Assembly: GCA_021790115.1 (NCBI GenBank)
Contig: JAJYIM010000002.1
Coordinates: 14,804-78,803, forward strand
Reading direction: 5' to 3'
Origin: Actinomycetes bacterium
GTDB taxonomy: Bacteria > Actinomycetota > Thermoleophilia > BMS3ABIN01
DNA: 64,000 bases
In this document: one piece after another, positions 3,072-63,198 of the stretch
Layout of the letters: each line of letters starts with the position of its first letter
Position numbering within the stretch: the stretch's first letter is position 1
Made by a program: the position numbers and the translations under genes
Notes under the pieces: model-generated
Database searches by the model: none
Told to the model about the DNA's origin: nothing
The model's input: only the letters and a program-made list of their open reading frames with translations

Positions 3072-3177
3072 AGCGGACGCTGGACGCTGGACTCTGGATA
3101 AAAGCAAAACCCAAAAAACAAAATTAACTTGACAAATGGGAAATAATCGTTAAAATGTTTTTTGAGCTTTGAGCTTT
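3072..3177 (+). promoter_or_regulatory. Intergenic repeat/promoter cassette: (GGACGCT)2-GGACTCT-GGAT heptamer array, AAAACCCAAAAAACAAAA tract, TTGACA(3129-3134)-N16-TAAAAT(3151-3156), then a (GAGCTTT)2 repeat
   Basis: Read directly from the sequence. Same architecture as seven other copies in the window. Confidence 0.55.
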
Positions 3178-4140
3178 ATGCCCAACAGAATCTGTGACAT
3201 ATTTGATATCGACCATCCCATCCTCCAGGGAGGGATGACCTGGGTCAGCGACGCCTGCCTGGCCGCGGCGGTTTCCAACGGAGGCGGCCTCGGCATTATC
3301 GGCGCCGGCGCCATGCCGGCCCGGTTGCTTGGCGAAGAGATCAGGAAGGCGCGCCAGTTAACAGAGCGCCCTTTTGGGGTTAACCTGATCATGATTAACC
3401 CGGAGTTTGAGCAGCAGCTGGAGGTGGTCCTGGCCGAGGCGCCGCCGGCGGTGACGCTGGGCGCAGTGAAAAACACGTCCGTGATCCCCCTGATGAAGGA
3501 GAAGGGGATCAAGGTGGCGCCCGTGGTGGCCGCCGTGGCGATTGCCCGCCGCTGCGAGGAGCAGGGGGCGGACGCCATCATTGCCGAGGGCTCGGAGTCC
3601 GGCGGGCACATTGGCGACACGACCACCATGGTGCTCGTGCCGCTGGTTTCCAGGGCAGTCGGCGTGCCGGTGATCGCCGCCGGCGGCATCGCCGGCGGCG
3701 CGGGAGTGGTGGCCGCCTTTGCGCTGGGGGCTGAGGGAGTTCAGCTTGGCACCCGCTTTGTCTGCGCAGAAGAATGCCCGGTGCACGAGGCTGTGAAGCA
3801 AAAATTCATGAAATCAGGCGACAGGGCAACGGTAGTGACTGCCCGCTGCGTCGGATATCCGGTGCGAACAATAAAAAACAAGCTATCCGGCTTGTATGAT
3901 CAGTGGGAAAGGAAGTACATGGCCGGCGAGTGCACTGCCATGGAAATTGAGAACCTGGGCCTGGGCAAGCTGCGCGAGGCCATGCGGGAAGGGAACGTCA
4001 GGGACGGCTCGATGATGGCCGGGCAGAGCGTCGCCCTGGTGGACAGGGTGCAGCCGGCGGCAGAGATCATTGCCGAGATCGTGGCCGAGGCGGAAGCCGC
4101 CGCAGCCCGCCTGGGCTCGCAAATGGCGCTCAGCCGGTGA
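3178..4140 (+). CDS. fabK: Enoyl-ACP reductase II FabK (FMN-dependent, nitronate monooxygenase family)
   Basis: DHPILQGGMTWVSDACLAAAVSNGGGLGIIGAG matches the FabK N-terminus. ATG at 3178; the ORF-track start at 3169 is a TTG. Confidence 0.85.
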   Translation: MPNRICDIFDIDHPILQGGMTWVSDACLAAAVSNGGGLGIIGAGAMPARLLGEEIRKARQLTERPFGVNLIMINPEFEQQLEVVLAEAPPAVTLGAVKNTSVIPLMKEKGIKVAPVVAAVAIARRCEEQGADAIIAEGSESGGHIGDTTTMVLVPLVSRAVGVPVIAAGGIAGGAGVVAAFALGAEGVQLGTRFVCAEECPVHEAVKQKFMKSGDRATVVTARCVGYPVRTIKNKLSGLYDQWERKYMAGECTAMEIENLGLGKLREAMREGNVRDGSMMAGQSVALVDRVQPAAEIIAEIVAEAEAAAARLGSQMALSR

Positions 4141-5826: not shown

Positions 5827-5977
5827 CCTGATGGTGGATGGCAGATGGTGGAAGATCGTTGGCAAAACACAAGGATTAAAACGGTCAAAATTTTAATCGA
5901 ACAATTCAATAGCGGCTTAACGAAAGGAAGAGCTTTTAGTGGTTAATCCACCATCCACCATCCACCATCCACCATCT
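5827..5977 (+). repeat. Inverted heptamer-array element: left arm GATGGTGGATGGCAGATGGTGG (5829-5860), right arm (CACCATC)x4 (5946-5977). It occupies the position where acpP normally sits between fabG and fabF.
   Basis: The arms are reverse complements of each other. The right arm overlaps the 5' end of the fabF ORF. Confidence 0.6.
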
Positions 5978-9042: not shown

Positions 9043-9065
9043 GGGCTGGCTGCTTAGGGCTTATC

Positions 9066-9112
9066 CCAGTAGGCGTATTCTACTGCGGCCGGCTGCAAAG
9101 GCTTTGGCATAG
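9066..9112. repeat. Partial copy of the MITE-like palindromic element (CTGCGGCCGGCTGCAAAGGC ... ATAGATTCT)
   Basis: About 40 nt are near-identical to 48738-48770, plus a terminal AGATTCT. It lies between convergent accA and ORF 9117-9695. Confidence 0.5.
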
Positions 9113-9116
9113 ATTC

Positions 9117-9719: not shown

Positions 9720-10499
9720 TTACCCGGTCGGCGGAGCCGCCTGGTTTGCTATCAGCGCCGCCGTGGCGCCGGCGCCGACGCCATTGTCGATATTGACAAC
9801 GGCAAGCCCGGGACAGCAGCTTTGCAGCATGGCCAGCAAGGCGGTCACACCTCCGCCTCCCAGGCCGTAGCCAGACGAAGTGGGGAGGCCGATCACCGGC
9901 ACCGGCACCAGGCCGGCAACCACGGAAGGCAGCGCTCCTTCCATCCCTGCGGCCACCACCAATGCGGCTGCGCCTGCCTCCATCATCTCACTCAGCGGCC
10001 CGGCCAGCCGGTGCAGCCCGGCCACGCCCACGTCGTATGCCGTTACTGCCTGGCAACCCATTTCTGCCGCGACAATGCGCGCCTGCTCGCACGCCGGCAC
10101 ATCGGCTGTGCCGGCCGAGAGGACACCGATCTTGCCTCCGCCAGCCCGCGGCTTAAGCCCCTTTTTTGCCAGCACAATGGTTTTGGCCTCTGCGCTCTGG
10201 GCGGCGATCATCCCGGCGAACCGGGACTCAAGCGCGGCCTGCTGCTCCCCGCTTAGGGAAGCGACGATTGAGCGGCCGCCGGCTTCAACAAGCGTGCTGC
10301 AGATTTCAAGCAATTGCCCAACCGTTTTACCGGGAGCAAAGACAATCTCCGGCACCCCCTTGCGCTGAAGACGCCCGGTGTCGAGCCTGGCGAACTCGCC
10401 AACCGCCAAAATTCCTGCCAGCGGCAGCCGCGCCTGCGCTTCGTCAATGCTGATCTTGCCTTCGGCAAGCTGCCTCAGGATCTCACGCTGGGTTTCCAC
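9720..10499 (-). CDS. larB: LarB-like PurE-family carboxylase (nickel-pincer cofactor biosynthesis / AIR carboxylase-like)
   Basis: GVPEIVFAPGKT, IGVLSAGTADVP, and a Gly-rich PurE-like fold (VAAGMEGALPSVVAG). Confidence 0.7.
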   Translation of the reverse strand: METQREILRQLAEGKISIDEAQARLPLAGILAVGEFARLDTGRLQRKGVPEIVFAPGKTVGQLLEICSTLVEAGGRSIVASLSGEQQAALESRFAGMIAAQSAEAKTIVLAKKGLKPRAGGGKIGVLSAGTADVPACEQARIVAAEMGCQAVTAYDVGVAGLHRLAGPLSEMMEAGAAALVVAAGMEGALPSVVAGLVPVPVIGLPTSSGYGLGGGGVTALLAMLQSCCPGLAVVNIDNGVGAGATAALIANQAAPPTG

Positions 10500-11337: not shown

Positions 11338-11473
11338 GTGGCCAGTATACTATTGGAGTTGGGAGAGCAAGAAAGGGGCGGTGGCGACGGCGACCCAACT
11401 GCTCTCAGCGCAGGGCGGCCCCGCCCGGTCCATGATTTTATCCAAAGTCTAACATCCAAAATTCAACGTCCGG

Positions 11474-12436
11474 TTATACCGGCGCCTTGAAATCCAGGCA
11501 CTCGCTGCCCTCGTAGATCTTGACTGCTTCATCAACCGGGTAATCGGCCAGAGTGATTGCCGAGATGGCGTCGCACATCCGCACCGCCTCCTCCAGGGGT
11601 TTTTGATGGATGTTTCTGCCGGTGGCGTTGCCGATGGCGCCGCTGATGTGAATCTGGTCGTGCAGCCGCTGCAGGAAGCTGCGCGCATCGGTGGACGAGC
11701 CGCCTGCCGCCACCACGTGCGTGCGCCCGGCCGCCACCACCGCTTCCTTGAAGATCTCGCTTGACTCCTGGCCTTCCGCCTTTGGATAGTTGACCTTGAC
11801 GAAGTCAGAGCCGAGCGTCAGGGCGACGCCGGTGGCGCCTGCGATCAGGTGCGGGTCTTTCTCGTCGGCCACGTTTTGGCCACGCGGGTAGATCCAGAGG
11901 ACGCTCAGCAGGCCGTGCCGGTGGGCGTCGTTGACAAGACGTGCTGCTTGTGACAGCATCTGCGGCTCGTAGGTGCTGCCCAGATAGATGGTGTAGCCGA
12001 CGGCCCTGATGTTGAGGCCCGATTCTTCCTTGAGCCTGGCCACCCGGTCGACGTCGAGCCACAGGTTGCTAAACGGGTCCATGGTGGCTGTTTTTACCAG
12101 ATTGGTCTTGGAATTGAGCTTGACAAGATAGTCGATCTCGCAGTAATCGTTGCCGTAGCGGGCAATCATACCGATCTGGGTCGCGTAGACGCCAATCGTT
12201 CCCTGGCGGGCGATCAGGAACATATGCTCCGGATCGGCGTCGTCTTCCGGTATCTGCCCCAGCTCGTACTTGCCAACGAAATCCTTGTTCAGGTGCTCCA
12301 CCTTCTGATCGCCGGCAAACAGCATCAGCCGGCCGGTGCCCTTGGTCATGGCGGTGAAATTCTCCACGTACTGCTCCCTCATTGCAGCAGGCACGTCGAG
12401 GGGTATTTGCACGTCCAGTCCGTCAACCATTCCCAA
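11474..12436 (-). CDS. Class I fructose-bisphosphate aldolase, DhnA/FbaB-type
   Basis: GDQKVEH..., LVKLN..., TIYLGS, and the YPRGQNV segment align in my reading with the E. coli FbaB/DhnA signature segments. Confidence 0.65.
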   Translation of the reverse strand: MGMVDGLDVQIPLDVPAAMREQYVENFTAMTKGTGRLMLFAGDQKVEHLNKDFVGKYELGQIPEDDADPEHMFLIARQGTIGVYATQIGMIARYGNDYCEIDYLVKLNSKTNLVKTATMDPFSNLWLDVDRVARLKEESGLNIRAVGYTIYLGSTYEPQMLSQAARLVNDAHRHGLLSVLWIYPRGQNVADEKDPHLIAGATGVALTLGSDFVKVNYPKAEGQESSEIFKEAVVAAGRTHVVAAGGSSTDARSFLQRLHDQIHISGAIGNATGRNIHQKPLEEAVRMCDAISAITLADYPVDEAVKIYEGSECLDFKAPV

Positions 12437-22487: not shown

Positions 22488-22489
22488 AG

Positions 22490-22570
22490 TTAAATTGACG
22501 TTTTTTTGTTACCACATCCGGCTTTTGGTTTATCCAGCATCCAGAGTCCACCATCCACCATCCGCTTTAC
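22490..22570 (-). promoter_or_regulatory. Reverse-orientation copy of the heptamer/A-C-tract cassette. On the minus strand it reads GGATGGTGGATGGTGGACTCTGGATGCTGGAT-AAACCAAAAGCC.
   Basis: The plus strand shows ATCCAGCATCCAGAGTCCACCATCCACCATCC. This is the reverse complement of the arm at 61149-61180. Confidence 0.55.
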
Positions 22571-23265
22571 GGCATCCCCGCATTCTCGAGGATGAAAACA
22601 AGCTCATCAATTACCCTTTGCTCCAGCGGCAGGGCGCGCAACTTGGCCACCGCCGCCCCCACATTGTAGTCCACCCGCTTCAACTCAACCTGCCCATCTT
22701 CAAGGACGGCGTAGCTGGCGGCGGCGATGCCGTCGCGCGGCTGGCCGATGCTGCCGACGTTGACCAGCAGCCGCCCGCTCACCTGGCGCGTAAAAGGTTT
22801 ATGCGTATGGCCCATCAGAACGATGTCGGCGCCGGCTACGCTTCCTTCCTCGTCCAGCTCGCTGTCTGGTGTTTCCGGCGTTACATATTTAAAGAGATGG
22901 TCGCTGGGGGCGGCGTGAACGGCAAAGACGCGCCGGCCGCCGCTTTCCAGCGCCAGGCTGGTTTGTGCCGACCCGGTCCAGGAAAGCTGCTCCGCGTCAA
23001 GCGCCTGCCACATGTACTTACGGGTCGCCAGGGAAAGGTGCAGGTAGGCCTGGCCGCAGCCGCAGTCCACCCGGAAGGCGACGGCATTGTCGTGGTTGCC
23101 GCGCACGCGCATGGCGCTGCGCTTGCGCAGCCAGTCAATACAAGACACCGGATCAGGTCCGTAGTCAACGACGTCGCCGAGGAACAGAACGGCATCAAAG
23201 GACTCGCTGATCGCCTCAAGCGCGTCGATGTTGGCATGGATGTCGGAGAGTACAAGAGTCCGCAT
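22567..23265 (-). CDS. Metallophosphoesterase (YfcE/MJ0936-like)
   Basis: LVLSDIHAN, GDVVDYGPDP, RGNHD, GHTH motifs. Confidence 0.7.
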   Translation of the reverse strand: MRTLVLSDIHANIDALEAISESFDAVLFLGDVVDYGPDPVSCIDWLRKRSAMRVRGNHDNAVAFRVDCGCGQAYLHLSLATRKYMWQALDAEQLSWTGSAQTSLALESGGRRVFAVHAAPSDHLFKYVTPETPDSELDEEGSVAGADIVLMGHTHKPFTRQVSGRLLVNVGSIGQPRDGIAAASYAVLEDGQVELKRVDYNVGAAVAKLRALPLEQRVIDELVFILENAGMP

Positions 23266-33435: not shown

Positions 33436-35286
33436 TCAGCGCACCTTGTTGTTTATAGTCTTATGCTTTGCGGGCTCCGCTGCGGCGGCCTCTTCAATCC
33501 CGGCCAGCTCCTGCCTGGCCTGCTCGAACCCGAGCAGCCTGAGGCGCAGTTCTCCCTCGAACCGCCGCAGTTCGGCCTCGCTTTTTTGCTTGGCCTCGCT
33601 GCCGGCCAGCAGGGCCCGGCGGATGCTCTCCTCGGTGCCGTTGACCGTCTCGTCGAGACCGGTGCGGAACTGCTGCAGTGTGGCCTGGATCCTTTCGCTG
33701 AAGTCATGGCGCAGGCGGCCGCAGTGGCGGTCGATCTGCTTTTCCATCCGCTCCCGCGCTTCTTTCAGGATCAGGCGGTGGCCCAGCCGCCTCGGCATCA
33801 GCAGCGTCGCTGATTCCGTCATCGCCTCCAGCGAAACCTTGACATCCTCGTCCAGCTTGAACTGGAAGCGGGACTCGGCCGCCAGGGCCTCGTCGATGGC
33901 AAATGGCTCAATGCTGACGTCAAAGATGCGGGCGGAGATGTCAACCAGGCGGGCGATGATGCTGTTTGTGCGCGCCACCAGCCGGTTGATAATCTGCGCC
34001 AGCATCTCTTCCAGCTTCTTTTCCTCCTGCTCCTGGAAGTCGGTAAAAATATCACGGATGCGGTCGTGCACGTACCGGTCAAACAGCCGCGCCAGGGCGC
34101 GGTTGCTTTCTTTTTTGATTTTTTGATAATACGTGTTAACACTGGCCGCGGCAGCGCCTGTCTGGCCGGCCTTCAGTCCTTTTAAGTCTTCTTCCAGGAC
34201 CGTAGCGATCAGCTCCGCTGTTTCCGCCTTTAGCAGCCGGTTGCTGTCCTGGCGCTCCTGATTGATCTCCGCCTGCGCCGATTCGAACATGCGCATTTTT
34301 CCCTCCAGGTCTTGAAGCGGCTCGCTCAGGCTTTTTTGCATCAGTTGCGCGGAAAAAGCTTCCTGGGATATCAGGTTTCTGATTTTGCCGGTGGCCGAAA
34401 TCAAAAAAACCCGCCCCTTTTCCCCAAGCAGGAATCCATCCAGCATGTTTTCAAAAGCGGGCAGCCCGCTTTCCTCAAGCATGGCCGGGTTGGGCGCTGT
34501 CTTTCCTTCCAGAGCCTGCCTGGCCGACAGGGGAAAGATCTCCACGTTCTTGAGGCCGGCCTGCTCCTCGATTATCTGCCTGGTGAACTCAAGGGATTCC
34601 TGCCTGTCGGCGGCGCTGACCATGTCAACCTTGTTGAGCACGAAGAAGATTCTGGTGGCGTACCCCTTGAGGTCGCCGAGGAACTTAAGCTCCGCCGCCG
34701 TGATCGGCGGGTCGACGCTGATCATGAACACGGCCGCGTCCGCATGGGGCAGGTAGCGGTAGGTCGTGCCCGTATTGTGACCGTACACCGAGGCAACGCC
34801 GGGCGTGTCGATGATCTGGACGCCGTTTTTCAGGTATGGGGACGGATAAAGGATCTCAACCCTGCCAACATTTTTCTCGTTTTTGGGGTTGTGCTTTTCC
34901 GTGATATAAAGCGGCAGGTCGGCGGCGCCAATCTCCCGCCGGGAGCCGTCACTGAAGAAAACCTGTGTCTGCAGAGCCTCGCCAAACTTGATGATGGTGA
35001 TGATGGATGTCAGCGGAATGATCGCCGTCGGCAGCAGGTTTTCTCCCAGGACGGAGTTGATAAAGGTGCTCTTGCCGCGCTTGAACTGGCCGGCGACCAC
35101 CAGCGAAAATTCGTTGCCGGCGATTTTGCGGCCCAGCGCCGCGAGCGACTTTTTGGCCGCCTCGCTCCCGGCCGCGTCCTGGAGCCGGAACGGCACCTGC
35201 GCCAGGCGCTCTTTAAGTGTTGAGTAAGTATCAGGCACGACAATAAAAAAGCTCCCGCAGTCATCTGCAGAAGCCATAAGCCCCAA
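33436..35286 (-). CDS. Bacterial dynamin-like GTPase
   Basis: G1 GQFKRGKST, G3 DTPG, G4 NKVD, then a long helical stalk region. 616 aa. Confidence 0.75.
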   Translation of the reverse strand: MGLMASADDCGSFFIVVPDTYSTLKERLAQVPFRLQDAAGSEAAKKSLAALGRKIAGNEFSLVVAGQFKRGKSTFINSVLGENLLPTAIIPLTSIITIIKFGEALQTQVFFSDGSRREIGAADLPLYITEKHNPKNEKNVGRVEILYPSPYLKNGVQIIDTPGVASVYGHNTGTTYRYLPHADAAVFMISVDPPITAAELKFLGDLKGYATRIFFVLNKVDMVSAADRQESLEFTRQIIEEQAGLKNVEIFPLSARQALEGKTAPNPAMLEESGLPAFENMLDGFLLGEKGRVFLISATGKIRNLISQEAFSAQLMQKSLSEPLQDLEGKMRMFESAQAEINQERQDSNRLLKAETAELIATVLEEDLKGLKAGQTGAAAASVNTYYQKIKKESNRALARLFDRYVHDRIRDIFTDFQEQEEKKLEEMLAQIINRLVARTNSIIARLVDISARIFDVSIEPFAIDEALAAESRFQFKLDEDVKVSLEAMTESATLLMPRRLGHRLILKEARERMEKQIDRHCGRLRHDFSERIQATLQQFRTGLDETVNGTEESIRRALLAGSEAKQKSEAELRRFEGELRLRLLGFEQARQELAGIEEAAAAEPAKHKTINNKVR

Positions 35287-35407
35287 AGGGCGCTTCAGGC
35301 GAGCTTCATCGCCTCTTAAAATATGCTCTATTCAATAGGAAATATAACAATTTGACTGTTTCTGGGCAAGGCTTTTTTATTATCGCGGTCATAAACGAGT
35401 GATTATT

Positions 35408-48722: not shown

Positions 48723-48726
48723 TAAG

Positions 48727-48961
48727 AATCTATCTCAAAAAGCATATTCTGCTGCGGCCGGCTGCAAAGGCGATGGGCGGCGTCCTCGGAGCAAAAAGTC
48801 CTCGACGTACCGCAAGGGTACGACTGCGGGCTTTTTACTCCTGCGTCCTTGCCCATCGCCTTTTCGCTCGGCCTCGCCACGAACAGCCTTTTGAGATAGA
48901 TTCTAAGAACCTATCTCAAAAGACTGCTTGTAGCAGAAGATGCCTTTTAAGATAGATTCCA
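48727..48961. mobile_element. MITE-like palindromic element cluster with four copies of a 17-nt terminus. It lies between rpsI and murF.
   Basis: Reverse-complement terminus AGAATCTATCTCAAAAAG at 48727. Forward terminus CTTTTGAGATAGATTCT at 48889, directly followed by CCTATCTCAAAAG (a 12-bp hairpin). Another copy reads TTTTAAGATAGATTCC at 48945. The interior has its own inverted repeat (GCGATGGGC...GCCCATCGC). Related copies lie at 696-714, 9066-9112, 37488-37541 and 47797-47815. Confidence 0.5.
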
Positions 48962-51446: not shown

Positions 51447-51619
51447 GGATATTGGATCTTGGACTTTGGATTTTACCCGAGACCATTCGGCTATGCCTGG
51501 AGAGCTTGGTTTGAGCAAGGCGAGGGACGGCAGAATGTTTGAGCTAACAGGATGAGCAGTAAAAACAAAAAGCGGGACTTGACTCAATGTCCAAGGTCCA
51601 ATATCCAAAATCCAAAGTC
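51447..51619 (+). promoter_or_regulatory. Inverted heptamer-array cassette upstream of murD: GGATATTGGATCTTGGACTTTGGATTTT (51447-51474) ... TTGACT (51579-51584) ... reverse-complement arm TCCAAGGTCCAATATCCAAAATCCAAAG (51590-51619)
   Basis: Read directly. The arms are reverse complements about 115 bp apart. Confidence 0.55.
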
Positions 51620-53125
51620 TGGTTTGAGGGCAATTTGCTGATTGCCGGCGCCGCCCGTTCCGGCAGGGCGGCGGCGCTGCTGGCGCGCCGCCTGTTGCCA
51701 GACGCGGAAGTCGTGGTTTGCGATCAAAGCGGCCGGCCGGCGCCGGAGGAAGAGCTGGCGGCGCTGGCGGCGGCGGGGGTGAAGCTTAAGCTGGGCAACC
51801 AGGATGCCAGCCTGCTTGACGGCTGCGGCCTGCTGGTAAAGAGCCCGGGTGTGCCGGCTGAGATTCCCCTTATCAGGGAAGCGCGGCGGCGCGGCGTTGC
51901 TGTCTGGGGCGAGATCGAGTTTGCCAGCCGTTTTTTGCCGAACCCTGTTATTGGCATAACGGGCACAAACGGCAAGACGACGGCCAGCGAGCTGGTTGGC
52001 CATATTCTCAGGGGAGCCGGCTGGCGGTGCCGGGTAGCCGGAAATGTAGGCACGGCGCTTTCATCGCTTGCGGGAGTCGTTGACAAAGATGACATTATCG
52101 TGGTGGAGCTCTCCAGTTTCCAGCTGGAGGACATCGTGGACTTCCGCGCTCATGTCGCCGTGCTGCTTAACTTAAGCGAGGATCACCTGGACCGCCACGC
52201 CGACGCCGCCGGGTATTATGCCGCCAAGATGAGGATCTTCGGGGGGCAGGAAGCGGGAGATGTGGCTGTTCTTAATGCGGGTGATCCTGCCGTAGCGGCG
52301 GCGCGCATTTCCGGGCAGGCCGGCAAGGTCTGGTTTGGTGTTCATGATGGCGAAATTGCCGGCGGCAGGCAGGGGTTGCCGGCGTTGGCAGTTTTTGCCA
52401 GCGGTGGAGAAATCAGGGCGGACATGGATCAGCTTGGCGCCGCTGCCCGCAAGGTCAGGGCCCGGTTTGCGGCTGCTTCCCCAGCGCCTGCATCTTGCGC
52501 GGGCGGCAGGAAAGCCGCCGCCGCCGGCGAAGACTCGGGAGGAAGTTTTGCGAAGATTATTTCCTGGCCGGAAGCTTCGATCAAAGGCGAGCATAACCTG
52601 GAAAACTCGCTGGCGGCCGCGGCCGTGTGCCTCTCCGCGGGGCTTTCCCCGGCTCAGGTAGCCGCCGGCTTGAGAAGTTTTCCCGGAGTGCCGCACCGGC
52701 TGCAGCGTGTGGCCGAGGTGGGCGGCGTCACATACGTCAATGACTCCAAGGCCACCAATGTCGCCGCCGCGGTCAAGGCGCTGACCGCCTTTGACAATGG
52801 TGTTCATTTGATCTTGGGAGGCAGCCGGAAGGGGTGCTCTTTTGCGGGGCTGGCGCAGGCGGCCGCCACCGGCAAGGTGAAAGAAGTAATTGCCATCGGT
52901 GAGGCGGCGGCCGAGATCGCCACCAGTTTTAAGCAGGTTGATAAAACTGTAATGGTTGTTGATGGTTTGGAAGATGCGGTCAGAGCCGCGGCCGAGGATG
53001 CTGTCCCCGGCGATGTTGTCTTGCTGGCGCCGGCTTGCGCCAGTTTTGACCAGTACGGCAACTTTGAGCAGCGGGGAGAGCATTTTATCTCCCTGGTAAG
53101 TCAATTGAAGACGGAGGCAGGTTGA
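51587..53125 (+). CDS. murD: UDP-N-acetylmuramoylalanine--D-glutamate ligase MurD (the true start may be TTG 51635 after GAGGG)
   Basis: GITGTNGKTT and Mur ligase central/C-terminal domains. The first 16 codons of the ORF-track start are encoded by the heptamer arm. Confidence 0.85.
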   Translation: MSKVQYPKSKVWFEGNLLIAGAARSGRAAALLARRLLPDAEVVVCDQSGRPAPEEELAALAAAGVKLKLGNQDASLLDGCGLLVKSPGVPAEIPLIREARRRGVAVWGEIEFASRFLPNPVIGITGTNGKTTASELVGHILRGAGWRCRVAGNVGTALSSLAGVVDKDDIIVVELSSFQLEDIVDFRAHVAVLLNLSEDHLDRHADAAGYYAAKMRIFGGQEAGDVAVLNAGDPAVAAARISGQAGKVWFGVHDGEIAGGRQGLPALAVFASGGEIRADMDQLGAAARKVRARFAAASPAPASCAGGRKAAAAGEDSGGSFAKIISWPEASIKGEHNLENSLAAAAVCLSAGLSPAQVAAGLRSFPGVPHRLQRVAEVGGVTYVNDSKATNVAAAVKALTAFDNGVHLILGGSRKGCSFAGLAQAAATGKVKEVIAIGEAAAEIATSFKQVDKTVMVVDGLEDAVRAAAEDAVPGDVVLLAPACASFDQYGNFEQRGEHFISLVSQLKTEAG

Positions 53126-54414: not shown

Positions 54415-55477
54415 GGGCGCCGGGGTTTCCTTTATCGGCACTGCCCGGGGGCTGGAGGCCAGTCTGGTGCCGGAGGCCGGCTACGAGCTTGACCAGGCTG
54501 ACTTGAGGGGCCTGGAGCGGCGGTTGTCACCCCGGTTTCTCCTTTTCTTCTGGTCGCTGTTTAAAGGCAGTTTTGACTCCCTGGCGATTCTCAGGCGCAG
54601 GCGGCCTGACGTTGTGGTCGGCGGCGGCGGCTATGTCAGCGCCGTGCCGGTTTTTGTGGCGGCTGTTACGGGCGCGCCTGTGCTGATCGTCGAGCTTGAT
54701 TCCCATATGGGATTGGCCAACCGCGTCCTTGCGCCTTTTGCCGGCCTTGTCTGCTTAAGCTTTCCGATCCCGGGAAAGACAGGGGAAAAATACGCAATCA
54801 CCGGGCGGCCACTGCCGGGAAGGCTGCTGACGGCCAATCCGGACGAAGGGAGGAGAAGGTTTAATTTAAACGGCGATTTGCCGGTGGTGCTGGTAAGCGG
54901 CGGCAGCCTGGGGGCAAAGTCCATCAACATGGCTTGCGCGGAGGCATTCGGGAGGGGCCGGCTGGAGCTGCAACTTGTGCACGTCAGCGGCAGGCGCGAC
55001 TTTGAAACTGTCAGACGCCTCTTGCAGGAGCAGGGTGCAGATCTGGAGAATTATCATTTGCTAGACTATACAAATGATTTACCCTTGGCGATGGCGGCAG
55101 CGGACCTGGTGGTAGGACGGTCCGGGGCGTCTGTGCTGGAAGTGGCGGCGCTGGGAAAGCCGGCGCTGCTTATTCCTTATCCCCACGCGACCGCCAGTCA
55201 CCAGCTTCATAATGCGCAATGGATGGCCGGCGCCGGCGCAGCCGAGGTTATCGAGGACAGCGAGCTTACGGGCAGCGTGTTCAGGGAGCGGGTGTTGGCC
55301 CTGCTGGATAATCCGGCGCGACTGCATCAGATGGCGGCCGCCAGCGCCGCCCTGGGCCGCCGGGACGGGGCCGAACGGATTGCAGACGAGGTGCTGAAAT
55401 TGAATAAGCGGATGCCGGATTCTGGAGCCCGGACGCTGGCCAGGACCAAAAAAGCAAATAAGCAACTTGATAAATAG
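54302..55477 (+). CDS. murG: Undecaprenyldiphospho-muramoylpentapeptide beta-N-acetylglucosaminyltransferase MurG
   Basis: AAGGTAGHLVPALA, GGSLGA. The ORF-track start overlaps ftsW by 113 nt and the true start is probably about 54340. The C-terminal tail (KRMPDSGARTLARTKKANKQLDK) is encoded by a repeat cassette. Confidence 0.85.
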   Translation: MPLPAQGISKQLKVVIAAGGTAGHLVPALALADALTGRGAGVSFIGTARGLEASLVPEAGYELDQADLRGLERRLSPRFLLFFWSLFKGSFDSLAILRRRRPDVVVGGGGYVSAVPVFVAAVTGAPVLIVELDSHMGLANRVLAPFAGLVCLSFPIPGKTGEKYAITGRPLPGRLLTANPDEGRRRFNLNGDLPVVLVSGGSLGAKSINMACAEAFGRGRLELQLVHVSGRRDFETVRRLLQEQGADLENYHLLDYTNDLPLAMAAADLVVGRSGASVLEVAALGKPALLIPYPHATASHQLHNAQWMAGAGAAEVIEDSELTGSVFRERVLALLDNPARLHQMAAASAALGRRDGAERIADEVLKLNKRMPDSGARTLARTKKANKQLDK

Positions 55478-55520
55478 AAAATAATCGTCATAATCTGCCG
55501 AACTTGGAACTTTGAACTCT
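55408..55520 (+). promoter_or_regulatory. Repeat/promoter cassette overlapping the murG 3' end: GGATGCC-GGATTCT-GGAGCCC-GGACGCT, an A-rich tract, TTGATA (55467-55472)-N16-CATAAT (55489-55494), then GAACTTGGAACTTTGAACTCT
   Basis: Read directly. Confidence 0.55.
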
Positions 55521-58552: not shown

Positions 58553-58665
58553 CCGGATGGTGGATAGTGGATAAACCCAAAAAACCAAAACCCAAAAAAC
58601 CAGAACCTAACTTATAAACGGAAAATAATCATCATATCTTTTCGGAAACCAGAAGTCGGAAACCA
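58553..58665 (+). promoter_or_regulatory. Repeat/promoter cassette upstream of ftsA: GGATGGT-GGATAGT-GGAT, AAACCCAAAAAACCAAAACCCAAAAAACCAGAACC, TTATAA-N15-CATATC, then CGGAAACC-N6-CGGAAACC
   Basis: Read directly. Confidence 0.5.
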
Positions 58666-60031: not shown

Positions 60032-61144
60032 TTGACTATTATGTTGGATCCTGGTAGCAGTTACCTGGCGGTCATAAGAGTAGTTGGCGTTGGCGGCGGC
60101 GGCACGAACGCCGTTAACCGCATGGTGGACGCGGGCCTGAAGGGCGTCGAATTCATTGCCGTAAATACTGATGCCCAGGCGCTGCTCATGTGCGACGCCG
60201 ATGTAAAGCTGCATATTGGCGGCAAGATCACGCAGGGGCTGGGAGCCGGAGCCGATCCGGAGGTCGGCCGCGAGGCCGCCGAGGAAAGCCGCGACGAAAT
60301 CCGTGAAGCGATCAAGGGCTCCGACATGGTGTTTGTGACCGCGGGCAAGGGCGGCGGCACCGGCACCGGCGCCGCTCCCGTTATTGCCGAGATCGCCAAG
60401 GAGCTGGGGGCGCTTACCGTTGGCGTGGTCACAAGGCCGTTTTCTTTTGAGGGAAAGCGCCGCAGCGACCAGGCCGAAGAAGGCATCCGCGCCCTGCGGG
60501 AAAAAGTCGATACGGTCATCATCATTCCCAACGACCGCCTGCTGCAGGTGGTTGAGAAGCGCACCTCCATCATCGATGCCTTCAAGGTCGCCGACGACGT
60601 CCTCCGGCAGGGCGTGCAGGGGATCACCGACCTTATCACGGTTCCGGGGCTTATCAACCTTGATTTTGCCGATGTCAAGGCAATCATGAGGGACGCCGGC
60701 TCAGCGCTGATGGGTATTGGCGTCGCCGGCGGCGAAAACCGGGCCGCCGAGGCCGCCAAGGCGGCCATTTCCTCGCCGCTGCTGGAAGCTTCGGTGGAGG
60801 GCGCAACCGGCATCCTGCTCAATATTACCGGCGGCCAGGATCTGGGCTTGTTTGAAGTCAACGAGGCGGCCGAGGTCATTTCCAGCGCCGCCGACGCCAA
60901 TTGCAATATCATTTTTGGCGCCGTCATTGATGACAGCATCAAGGACGAGGTCAAGGTCACTGTTATCGCCACCGGTTTTGACAAGCAGCCCGGCCATCTC
61001 GGCAGGCGCGAGGCTGCCGGCGAGCCGATGTTTAAAAAAACGGCGGCCGGCGAGCGCGGCCAGAATGACCAGAAAGATGTGCCGGGATTTGAGCTAAATG
61101 ACGATATCCTTGATATTCCGACTTTTTTGAGGGAGAAAGAATAG
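60032..61144 (+). CDS. ftsZ: Cell division protein FtsZ
   Basis: Tubulin signature GGGTGTG, NTDAQAL. Confidence 0.95.
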
Positions 61145-61148
61145 ATAC

Positions 61149-61270
61149 CCGGATGGTGGATGCTGGACTCTGGATGCTGGATTAAACCCAAACCCAAACC
61201 CAAACCCAAACCCAAAACTTAACTTGATAAATAGAAAAAATTCGTTATAATCTTTTCGGAACTCGGCAGG
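61149..61270 (+). promoter_or_regulatory. Repeat/promoter cassette upstream of pgeF: GGATGGT-GGATGCT-GGACTCT-GGATGCT-GGAT, (AAACCC)5, TTGATA (61224-61229)-N16-TATAAT (61246-61251), then TTTTCGGAACTCGG and the palindrome GGCAGGCAATTGCCTGCC (61266-61283)
   Basis: Read directly. Best-conserved copy. Confidence 0.6.
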
Positions 61271-61307
61271 CAATTGCCTGCCGGTTGTTTAGGCGCGGAC
61301 CGATAGC

Positions 61308-62144
61308 ATGAACAGAAATCAGTCCGTATACGATGGCATCAACAGCTACGGATCATTTGCCAAGGTCAACCCTGTCTTCAGGCTTCCGCTTGGCTGGCGA
61401 TTTGCCGGGGCCCCGGCGGGCACCAATATCTTTTTCACGATGAGGCACGGCGGCGTCAGCCGGCCTCCCTACGAGTCGCTGAATCTGGGATTCCATGTCG
61501 GCGACGATCATGCCCGCGTTTTGCAGAACCGCACCGCTCTGGCGGAAATGCACGGCATTGATCCGGGCGGCATCACTTCTCCCCGGCAGCGGCATACCGC
61601 CAGGGTGATGCTGCTTGAGCGTGACGGTCAGGTCGGCTCGGGGGCATTTGGCGAGCAGTCAGTTTTTGACCCTTGCGACGGCTTGATCACCACGCTGCGG
61701 AAAGCTCCCGTTTTGCTTCATTTCGCCGATTGCCTGCCGGTGGTGCTGGCCGCCGGCGGCGAGCGGCCGGTAGTGACAGTGCTGCACGCCGGGCGCAAGG
61801 GCCTGGTTGATGGCGTTGTCAAAAATGGCGTCGCGGTAATGACCGATCAATTCGGCGCCGGGCCGGACTCAATCACGGCGGCGCTGGGCCCGGCAATCGG
61901 TCCATGTTGCTATCAGGTCGGAGTTTCGATTGCGGGCGATTTTCAGGCGAGGTTTGGTCCGGAGAGCGTCATTGGCGCCAACGTTGACCTTGCCGCCGCC
62001 GCTATTATTGATCTGAAAAGCGCCGGCATCCCGCCGGACAACATCCATCTGCTCGATGCCTGCACCTGCTGCAACCATGACTATTATTCCTACCGGCGCG
62101 ACGGAGTCACGGGCCGCCACGGCGCCCTTGCCTGGATAGAATAG
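61308..62144 (+). CDS. pgeF: Peptidoglycan editing factor PgeF / YfiH-family (laccase-domain) protein
   Basis: HG..V, C.DAC.C.N.DYYSYRRDG C-terminal motif. Confidence 0.8.
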   Translation: MNRNQSVYDGINSYGSFAKVNPVFRLPLGWRFAGAPAGTNIFFTMRHGGVSRPPYESLNLGFHVGDDHARVLQNRTALAEMHGIDPGGITSPRQRHTARVMLLERDGQVGSGAFGEQSVFDPCDGLITTLRKAPVLLHFADCLPVVLAAGGERPVVTVLHAGRKGLVDGVVKNGVAVMTDQFGAGPDSITAALGPAIGPCCYQVGVSIAGDFQARFGPESVIGANVDLAAAAIIDLKSAGIPPDNIHLLDACTCCNHDYYSYRRDGVTGRHGALAWIE

Positions 62145-62150
62145 ATTAAG

Positions 62151-62285
62151 CGGATGGTGGATTCTGGATTCTGGATGCTGGATTAAACCCAAAACCCAAA
62201 ACCCAAAACCAAATAATAATCTTGATGAGTAGAAAATACTTGATATATTTTTTGGAACTCGGAACTCGGAACTCGGAACTCTGAT
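62151..62285 (+). promoter_or_regulatory. Repeat/promoter cassette upstream of yggS: GGATGGT-(GGATTCT)2-GGATGCT-GGAT, (AAAACCC)3, TTGATG-N16-TATATT, then (GGAACTC)4
   Basis: Read directly. Confidence 0.6.
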
Positions 62286-62288
62286 TAA

Positions 62289-63005: not shown

Positions 63006-63198
63006 AGAGGTTCAAACAAGGGATAGGAAGGTCAAGGTAGAACAAAAACGAAAGGGAGTGGAGAATTAAGAAAGGGAGTCGAGCCGCAGAGGTCATATGG
63101 CGGCCAAGCAGATGCCGCGCTAACCCTCATGCTTCTCTTGATTCTCGACTCCCAAGTCTCAATTTGCACTGGAGGTGATTGCGATAGCTAACGGCAGC

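Follow-up and report, generated by a model that had tools for sequence, protein, structure and literature searches.

Between ftsZ and pgeF, in a 64-kb stretch of a metagenome-assembled genome (MAG) of an Actinomycetes bacterium (hereafter the window, with W for its genome), lies an intergenic repeat structure (61149-61270, + strand), which an earlier note had described as a row of heptads, an A/C repeat, a promoter and a second short repeat, a description that the sequence matches exactly. A heptad arm (GGATGGT GGATGCT GGACTCT GGATGCT GGAT, 61151-61182) begins 6 nt past the ftsZ stop codon (TAG, 61142-61144) and runs through the junction TTAAAC into (AAACCC)5.5 (61183-61216, with the hexamers at 61184-61216); together these form what is here called element A. 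Element P is present as a whole (61210-61266; profile E-value 1.8e-9) and opens with an A-rich upstream tract, followed by a -35 hexamer TTGATA (61224-61229), a 16-nt AT-rich spacer and a -10 hexamer TATAAT (61246-61251), and then by CTTTTC and GGAACTC (61258-61264), with a predicted transcription start near 61258 and the ATG of pgeF at 61308. The locus is the junction of two separable, lineage-specific intergenic repeat elements (A and P), and not one indivisible cassette. The feature is real and statistically robust, while it is apparently undescribed and partly understood.

An assembly artefact is excluded, because the focal sequence is identical to the NCBI MAG contig, has 2 mismatches in 12.7 kb to the ENA assembly and agrees with a Logan unitig across the compared flanks. 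Likewise, the identities of fabH, fabK (NMO family), fabD, fabG, fabF, murD, murC, ftsA, ftsZ, pgeF and yggS were confirmed, so that the names given earlier to fabK, fabF, murD, murC, ftsA, pgeF and yggS hold. Every intergenic gap was listed, and the gaps were scanned for promoters both by motif and by profile. The comparison included two sister species (L036 and L037), an outgroup (L039/L040), the DNA directly to the left of the window (L161, 1-9153) and a further locus with cassettes beyond the window (L001).

Elements A and P

Element A has the form CGGAYNN (TGGAYNN)n TGGAT(T)AAAC, continued by (AAACCC)n-type repeats, and its arms have defined ends (CGGA... at the 5' side and ...TGGATTAAAC at the 3' side). 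In 81 kb there are 15 arrays of at least three YGGAYNN units, while shuffled sequence gives 0.005, and GGAYNNTGGAYNNTGGA with at most one mismatch gives 23 matches where 0.23 are expected. Position 1 of the unit is a pyrimidine in 159 of the 160 units, though the search pattern left that position free, and the NN positions carry 0.07-0.25 bits. The arrays are found mainly in the gaps between genes, or over a gene end or start, and most sense arms of the clade loci begin 1-20 nt past a stop codon, with the G-rich strand being the sense strand. Since one arm in a relative begins 5 nt past the CCA end of tRNA-Ile, the positional rule concerns the ends of genes or transcripts and not the termination of translation.

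Arms without P occur at 22533 (-), 11441 (-), 5830 and 51447 of the window, as well as at L001 15731. The first of these is element A alone (22533-22563, - strand; site span 22488-22566), located 3 nt past the stop of a minus-strand metallophosphoesterase gene (22567-23265) and without a promoter, and the second is a degenerate copy, also alone (11441-11471, - strand), 2 nt past the stop of a minus-strand gene of the DeoC family (11474-12436). The earlier note had assumed a single cassette with the same module order in eight copies plus a degenerate one; the gap listing and promoter scans find all five modules (heptads, A/C repeat, promoter, second repeat and start codon) at only 5 of the 9 window sites, and the idea of an indivisible unit gives way to arms that stand without a promoter, after a tRNA, or as inverted arms around tRNAs in relatives. 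An account of arm orientation based on the replication strand is ruled out, since minus-strand genes bear sense-oriented arms. A restriction to intergenic regions between co-directional genes (15 of 15) is non-significant, because the window has few convergent or divergent gaps.

Some other readings of the arm sequence were dropped. Where an arm has four complete units, reading from the ATG in its first GGATGNT leads in frame to the TAA at the GGATTAAAC junction, which gives mini open reading frames (ORFs) of 10 codons (MVDxGxWMLD or MLDSGxWxLD; window 61153-61185 and 62154-62186, L001 14338-14370, 14384-14416 and 16939-16971), a pattern that fails in GGAC-type arms, at other unit numbers and after tRNAs. 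The resemblance of GTGGATAA at the arm ends to the DnaA box of the organism (TTATCCACA) is taken as a coincidence, because the terminal unit alone matches. As for a G-quadruplex (i.e. at least four runs of at least three G with short loops), the arms hold GG runs only, and many of them, with units such as GGATATT and GGACTTT, would need 5-nt loops; with GG rather than GGG or GGGG runs, the rationale for a quadruplex is weak, a fold of two tetrads being conceivable.

Element P is about 75 nt long (about -57 to +15) and consists of an A-tract, TTGAYA, a 16-nt AT-rich spacer, YATAAT, a T-run and (GGAACTC)n, the aligned consensus being ...AAAAAA..AAA...ACTTGACAAATAGAAAATAATCG.YATAAT.TTTTTGGAACTCGGAACTC. 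With a sigma-70-type promoter taken as hexamers near TTGACA and TATAAT at a spacing of 16-18 nt, four of the five window copies conform, having 9-11 of the 12 consensus hexamer positions and a 16-nt spacer, while the ftsA copy is degenerate; the focal promoter, at 11 of 12, is the best match of the promoter scan over 50-64 kb. From -35 to -10 the copies are 68-86% A+T, in a genome of ~60% G+C, and nearly all of them have a 16-nt spacer. Every copy faces the gene that follows it, and the predicted leader measures ~10-50 nt up to the gene start. A 25-nt promoter core has 3 matches with up to 3 mismatches versus 0 expected, and a profile built from 12 copies recovers 5 further ones, all at cassette positions, and the 902 kb of other DNA (outgroup included) yield no match at E<1. 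The promoter upstream of dsrM (TTGACA-17-TAGATT), a standard one with a 17-nt GC-containing spacer, shows, as judged from its sequence, the TTGACA-type consensus in use in the host organism, and since such ordinary spacers occur elsewhere, P constitutes a distinct, dispersed sub-family. The earlier claim of a shared, near-identical sigma-70-type promoter before several fab, dcw and division genes is thus supported in silico by orientation, by the fixed 16-nt spacer and by orthologous conservation.

Besides the focal site, all modules are present before fabK, murC, ftsA and yggS (all + strand). At fabK (3072-3178), element A follows the fabH stop (GGACGCT twice, GGACTCT, GGA; 3075-3098) and P (3117-3178; E=2.8e-7) comprises TTGACA (3129-3134), a 16-nt spacer, TAAAAT (3151-3156), GTTTTTT and (GAGCTTT)2, directly followed by the ATG (3179). 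At murC (55408-55520), the arm is degenerate (GGATGCC GGATTCT GGAGCCC GGACGCT; 55410-55441) and P (55455-55520; E=5.4e-8) has TTGATA (55467-55472), a 16-nt spacer and CATAAT (55489-55494), succeeded by the leader repeats GAACTTG GAACTTT GAACTCT, within which the TTG start of murC (55512) falls. At ftsA (58553-58665), the ftsQ stop is followed by GGATGGT GGATAGT GGATAAAC and an A/C-rich repeat (58555-58607), and P has degenerate hexamers (TTATAA ... CATATC, then CGGAAACC twice; 58601-58665; E=0.013). At yggS (62151-62285), four and a half heptads and (AAAACCC)3.7 come after the pgeF stop (62152-62210), whereupon P (62208-62288; E=1.2e-7) provides TTGATG (62222-62227), a 16-nt spacer, TATATT (62244-62249), TTTT and (GGAACTC)4 (62254-62281) up to the ATG (62289). 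A full double-arm cassette with promoter is located just beyond the window in the dnaN-recF gap (L161 3080-3258), and more full cassettes lie 3' of divIVA, rluD and cobQ (L001 14336, 16937 and 18569); the genes served by cassettes belong to fab and dcw or are recF and dnaX.

The overlaps with coding sequence that had been claimed for the murG tail and for the N-termini of fabF and murD are real, as follows from ORF reading and from the translated arms. The MurG ORF continues across the heptad arm and the A-rich tract as far as a TAG in the promoter spacer (55475-55477). This read-through (55400-55477) gives MurG an extra tail of ~25 residues, and because the L036 orthologue stops with TTG TAG directly before the arm, a lost stop or a frame error in the W genome is suggested.

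The left flank contains parA, dnaA, dnaN, recF, dciA, gyrB and gyrA (L161 1-9153), with perfect DnaA boxes (TTATCCACA) in the parA-dnaA gap, i.e. it is an origin region, and the presence of dnaA, dnaN, recF, gyrB and gyrA implies that the window adjoins the replication origin. Elements A and P concentrate in the fab, dcw/division and origin-proximal gene clusters, and the majority of the cassette genes are on the presumed leading strand. The gyrB-gyrA gap holds a further heptad run, (CCACAAC)3 (L161 7292-7359). A 24-kb part of the window (23000-47000) has no arm and no P copy; its genes are mostly on the minus strand and its GC content is partly lower (0.54-0.58).

Regarding RNA structure, the promoter cassettes show none (z-scores of -0.8 to +1.8), the focal one folding worse than 195 of 200 shuffles, and being unstructured they are not hidden terminators or riboswitches. 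In an Rfam scan of the window and L001 no family reached its gathering score on a cassette, the sole match being a fluoride riboswitch elsewhere (RF01734, 44.5 bits at a gathering score of 34; 35261-35322, - strand), 5' of a minus-strand gene.

The cassettes could also act as insulators, in which the G-free (AAACCC)n would load Rho after the stop and P would restart transcription, rendering each gene independent. This would suit a tract that is untranslated, without G and directly after gene ends, as well as cassettes that are unstructured and have no intrinsic-terminator hairpin, while the outgroup does have an intrinsic terminator after ftsZ; moreover, at ftsA, pgeF and cobQ the 78 nt that follow the arm rank among the top 1.5-3% in C minus G. 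Measured as a Rho utilisation site (~70-80 nt of C-rich, G-poor untranslated RNA), however, three of the 8 cassettes rank within the top 3% for C minus G, and the other 5 show nothing remarkable and no excess of C over G (C minus G of -1 to +7, 41st-83rd percentile). The C-rich tract is just 20-35 nt long, and in relatives (AAACCC)n is also found in reverse complement 5' of a tRNA, within an inverted arm, which makes Rho-dependent insulation a very improbable explanation.

Predicted pairing of inverted arms

The inverted arms that the earlier note had pointed out at fabF and murD are confirmed, and in the predicted folds sense arm and inverted arm pair into long hairpins. In the fabG-fabF gap, the sense arm after the fabG stop (5830-5858, + strand) forms the 5' half, and a C-rich inverted arm, (ATCCACC)4.4 ending in ATCTGCTTTT, forms the 3' half over fabF codons 2-13 (5944-5977, + strand), with a free energy (dG) of -55.9 kcal/mol and a z-score of -6.7. 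In the mraY-murD gap, the corresponding halves are the sense arm after the mraY stop (51447-51474, + strand) and an inverted arm over the murD start codon and the first 11 codons (51586-51620, + strand), with a dG of -62.8 kcal/mol and a z-score of -3.1. The murD helix is also predicted in L036 and L037 despite different units (z -2.6 and -3.5). The N-termini of MurD and FabF are thus encoded by inverted arms, which in MurD amounts to an N-terminal extension that is conserved at the protein level. Neither the motif scan nor the P profile finds a promoter at the fabF site (5830-5977) or the murD site (51447-51620).

In relatives, inverted arms bracket tRNAs. Among the clade loci, 4 of 4 tRNAs have a C-rich inverted arm ending in CCGCTTT(T/A) that abuts their 5' end, and 3 of 4 have an AAAA(A)CCGGA... 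arm (AAAACCGGA) after their CCA end, in a sample of 4 tRNAs from loci selected for containing arms, 2 of the 4 being the selected matches themselves. The four tRNAs (tRNA-Ile, two tRNA-Ala and tRNA-Glu) are found in related MAGs, on the minus strand (L030 3739-3888 and 939-1260, L023 1328-1477). The predicted leader-trailer helices consist of blocks of 3-6 bp at UGGAU/AUCCA cores with the NN looped out (z -2.5, -4.3 and -1.3). Pairing of this kind, with free NN, would account for both the conservation of YGGAY and the freedom of NN. Beyond the clade, none of the 5 tRNAs in the 120 metagenome loci listed abuts an array.

That YGGAY is kept while NN is free is also what would be expected of a binding motif, and the heptads might constitute an operator array, i.e. 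double-stranded DNA sites at which an oligomeric regulator polymerises upstream of P to co-regulate growth and division genes. Operators built of 7-bp heptads are known for the omega repressor of pSM19035, nine cassettes have their array at about -75 to -110 relative to P, and the served genes (fab, dcw, recF and dnaX) are functionally coherent. The arms, however, also occur without a downstream promoter, after a tRNA and inside coding starts, their strand follows the upstream gene instead of the promoter, and the same cores pair with inverted arms in the predicted RNA helices. In addition, a 7-bp spacing places successive sites on different faces of the helix, and no candidate protein was identified. 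A shared regulator of the GGAY repeats is possible as such, with their conservation being equally explained by RNA pairing with inverted arms, while a polymerising DNA-bound array of this type appears distinctly unlikely.

Descent, distribution and known repeats

In L036 and L037, whose PgeF is 74-77% identical to that of W, both elements are found at orthologous intergenic regions of the syntenic dcw/division cluster, with differing units and counts and with occasional loss. The outgroup (PgeF 60% identical) has zero arrays and has the intrinsic terminator after ftsZ mentioned above; the same architecture is present in further Actinomycetota MAGs. L037 retains the promoters of pgeF and ftsA and L036 those of pgeF, yggS and murC, the L037 orthologue of the ftsA promoter being intact (TTGACA-16-CATATT). 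Overall, the hexamers, the T-rich discriminator and the first predicted transcribed bases of orthologous P sites are conserved, while the leader heptads vary in number and the spacer in part of its sequence. Between the pgeF promoters of W and L037, for instance, the -35 region, the -10 hexamer, the discriminator and GGAACTCGG are identical, and of the 11 variable spacer positions about half differ.

The leader before pgeF has one GGAACTC in W, four in L037 and six copies of CGGAACC in L036, which could be taken to mean that the gain and loss of units switches or grades expression, as 7-bp repeats between promoter and start codon do for hmw expression in Haemophilus influenzae (PMC12721329, PMC8262952). 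The repeats are nonetheless outside the spacer between -35 and -10, which is fixed at 16 nt, being located upstream of -35 or downstream of the predicted transcription start, and the genes served are essential housekeeping genes. Unit counts are equal in the NCBI, ENA and Logan assemblies, i.e. no length variation between strains was seen among three assemblies that possibly come from the same or related samples, which makes this a weak test. Classical phase variation, as had been proposed for these promoters, is not upheld by these findings, and promoters tunable by copy number are the least probable of the explanations considered.

Arms at unrelated loci within one genome are 74-91% identical (88-91% in W), versus 38-73% for orthologous arms, although this higher likeness of paralogues rests on the best of 13 against a single orthologue. 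Such a genome-specific flavour is consistent with dispersal or gene conversion in the past; L003 has three arms that are nearly identical, and so does L031. The earlier suggestion of a mobile promoter-delivery element resembling a miniature inverted-repeat transposable element (MITE), which would be non-autonomous and insert after gene ends, as the cassette or as A and P apart, bringing a promoter along, draws on this dispersed family with its genome-specific consensus, on the 25-nt core that P copies at unrelated genes have in common with 0-3 mismatches, and on the inverted arms at two window sites. Presence also differs between species: the ftsQ-ftsA junction of L036 has 3 heptads, overlapping stop and start, and is without P, while W and L037 have ~125 extra nt that carry P, a difference that either an insertion or a deletion could have made. 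On the other hand, there is no target-site duplication (the flanks of the inverted arms are complementary, AAAA/TTTT, and extend the inverted repeat instead of forming direct repeats), the promoter cassettes are without terminal inverted repeats, and no transposase was linked to the elements. Orthologous copies keep locus-specific marks (CATATY at ftsA, TATAATCTTTTCGGAACTCGG at pgeF and T-rich NN at mraY-murD), which implies vertical descent since the species split, and the inverted-arm sites are conserved in three species and partly translated, the murD arm being conserved in the MurD protein. A MITE is therefore not supported, and mobile delivery of promoters seems unlikely.

It might also be argued that no function is needed at all, in that heptanucleotide microsatellites would build up by slippage under weak selection, with the promoter likeness and the positions being incidental. 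Passages in the literature on heptanucleotide repeats describe their excess as a known property of some bacterial genomes and put it down to polymerase slippage (PMC4679880 citing Mrazek 2007; PMC4692102). In agreement with this, period 7 recurs in unrelated units of the same intergenic regions (GGAYNNT, AAAACCC, GGAACTC, CGAAACG, GAGCTTT and CCACAAC), and unit counts vary between species. Neutral slippage does not, however, predict arms whose 5' and 3' ends are defined and whose strand and placement relative to genes are fixed, the persistence of YGGAY between species with 74-77% PgeF identity while NN varies, the conservation of the P hexamers and spacer length, or a murD hairpin kept in three species despite different units, and there is accordingly little probability left for it.

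TGGAYNN arrays as such are widespread in metagenomes, a scan giving at least 120 stretches with a GC content of 32% to 71%. Among the matches listed, an inverted partner lies no more than 250 nt away for 26 of the 171 arrays, and none of the 171 shows the order of array, A/C tract, promoter and GGAAC; the order of A and P and the P profile are found only in this clade, among the DNA compared. A different family is present on contigs of ~62% GC (L042, L043, L044, L078, L080, L119, L137, L146 and L153), with a core that contains TTGTCAAGGGG..GGGCGGGCGGATCC between (GGATGCT)n arms and inverted arms, the entire unit being framed by CCCACCCACC/GGGTGGGCGGG. Its right arm has T where strict complementarity to GGATGCT needs C, which keeps G-U pairs on this strand and hints at a hairpin at the RNA level. 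The window also holds another dispersed, REP-like repeat that is unrelated to the arms (676-847, 9043-9116 and 48723-48939; CTGCGGCCGGCTGCAAAGGC and TTTGAGATAGATT / AATCTATCTCAAA motifs), while the sepF leader (63006-63174, and the corresponding gaps of L036, L037 and L039) has a conserved block, GAACAAGGG..CAAGGTAGAACAAAAACG.AAGGGAGTGGAG, for which RNAalifold gave no supported consensus structure and Rfam no family match.

Short dispersed repeats that are transcribed and lie at gene 3' ends in operons are familiar as the extragenic REP/BIME and REPIN sequences of Enterobacteria and Pseudomonas, just as the Correia elements of Neisseria are small, dispersed intergenic repeats that can supply promoters and whose transcribed hairpins are cut by RNase III, and the BOX elements of Streptococcus pneumoniae are modular with a variable number of internal subunits. 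The present system resembles these in logic and fails their defining features. With REP/BIME/REPIN it has in common the modular mosaics, the singlets and inverted hairpin-forming doublets and the genome-specific consensus, but the REP unit is palindromic and REPs are without promoters, whereas the arms are tandem heptads without self-complementarity. The terminal inverted repeats and TA duplication of Correia elements are both absent here, BOX subunits measure ~45 nt compared to 7 nt, and there is no sequence similarity to either. Bacterial rRNA operons, in which leader and trailer form helices that serve as processing stalks, are comparable in that 5' and 3' flanks pair around a stable RNA gene, as predicted here for tRNA-Ile, tRNA-Ala and tRNA-Glu in relatives; unlike those stalks, the helices are made of repeated 3-6 bp blocks with looped-out NN, and the same type of arm also follows protein genes.

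Among known systems, intergenic heptanucleotide arrays come closest, i.e. GGGAATC in Xanthomonas and GGGGAYT in Nostoc (Rehm et al. 2015, PMC4692102) and TAACTGA in Beggiatoaceae (MacGregor 2015, PMC4679880), along with the short tandemly repeated repetitive (STRR) sequences of cyanobacteria. As in long simple sequence repeats (LSSR) and STRR, the units are 7 nt, head to tail, above chance and mostly intergenic, the sense strand is G-rich just after a stop or the antisense strand lies just before an ORF, and the number of units varies between species. The arrays of PMC4692102 likewise have their G-rich strand within ~50 nt after a stop, or the antisense just 5' of an ORF, mostly between co-directional genes; known arrays also occur as singlets and inverted pairs, keep their type while changing length between species, accompany housekeeping genes and have no known function. 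The present arms differ from them by degenerate YGGAYNN units of which a 5-nt core is kept, by GG instead of GGG or GGGG runs, by defined ends and an attached second repeat type, and by a fixed-order link to one conserved promoter element, as well as by the bracketing of tRNAs in relatives. With hmw1A/hmw2A (PMC12721329, PMC8262952) there is the likeness of heptanucleotide repeats between promoter and start codon (cf. (GGAACTC)n), but those are adhesin contingency loci with length variation at strain level, whereas housekeeping genes are concerned here, with no variation seen within the population.

Proposed roles of the two elements

Following these observations, we consider it moderately probable that P is a housekeeping-sigma promoter and A a transcribed gene-end arm that pairs with inverted arms. 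With its UP-like A-tract, near-consensus hexamers, T-rich discriminator and GGAACTC-type leader, P would be an internal promoter for the housekeeping sigma factor, and would let single genes of the fab, dcw/division and dnaN-recF clusters be transcribed from a start of their own. Slippage of the leader heptads would then alter the length of the 5' untranslated region over evolutionary time. Element A, once transcribed, would act as RNA, its UGGAY cores pairing with the AUCCA cores of inverted arms while the NN are looped out, through which arm and inverted arm would form a long helix, either interrupted or perfect. In relatives this helix would enclose a tRNA, which suggests a role similar to that of a processing stalk. 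In the window it would close the intergenic region and occlude the first codons of fabF and murD, where its most likely role is that of a processing stalk or of coupling translation to the upstream gene, since a ribosome terminating 5-10 nt 5' of the 5' arm would open the helix. The focal arm (61151-61216) has no inverted partner in cis; it may represent half of an element, pair with a partner in trans or serve as a protein site.

Several observations weigh against this proposal. The tRNA evidence comes from 4 tRNAs in arm-selected loci, the interrupted helices (blocks of 3-6 bp) are poor classical substrates for RNase III, and 13 of the 15 arms in 81 kb are without a nearby inverted partner, so that pairing alone cannot account for YGGAY there and trans pairing, a protein or recent dispersal would be needed. 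The support that dispersal derives from the likeness of paralogues is subject to the best-of-13 comparison mentioned above. With regard to P, the ftsA copy has poor hexamers in W, and a GC-rich hairpin followed by GGTTGTTT (61263-61284, with the T-run to 61290, + strand) is located between element P and the pgeF ATG, just 3' of the predicted pgeF transcription start; efficient termination at this hairpin would make P unproductive at pgeF. A hairpin and T-run 20-30 nt 5' of the pgeF start are found in 4 of 4 species (the window, L037 at ~9950-9975, L036 at ~9960-9985 and the outgroup L039 at ~9945-9975), always 3' of the cassette promoter where that promoter exists, and could be an ftsZ terminator, a 5' stabiliser or an attenuator.

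A broader and quite tentative idea, to which we give a low probability, is that YGGAYNN arms are a functional gene-boundary signal and not junk microsatellites, with UGGAY every 7 nt as a code for pairing and recognition. The occurrence of related TGGAYNN arrays on contigs of 32% to 71% GC would in that case point to an oligomeric factor binding RNA or single-stranded DNA, or to a class of self-propagating hairpin elements with arms built of repeats.

The excess of intergenic heptanucleotide repeats has been noted since about 2007 and characterised in Xanthomonas, Nostoc and Beggiatoaceae without a function being assigned, and this old question is now testable, given the new anatomy of defined arm ends, a pattern of kept cores and free NN that fits pairing, the bracketing of tRNAs in relatives and a predicted helix over the murD start in three species. 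In a practical sense, repeat-encoded N- and C-termini affect gene calling and operon prediction in these MAGs, and the compact, reusable set of promoter and leader may aid genetics in uncultured Actinomycetota. For the organism itself, the re-wiring of the strongly conserved cell-division cluster through copies of a single promoter element, as predicted here, amounts to an unusual operon organisation.

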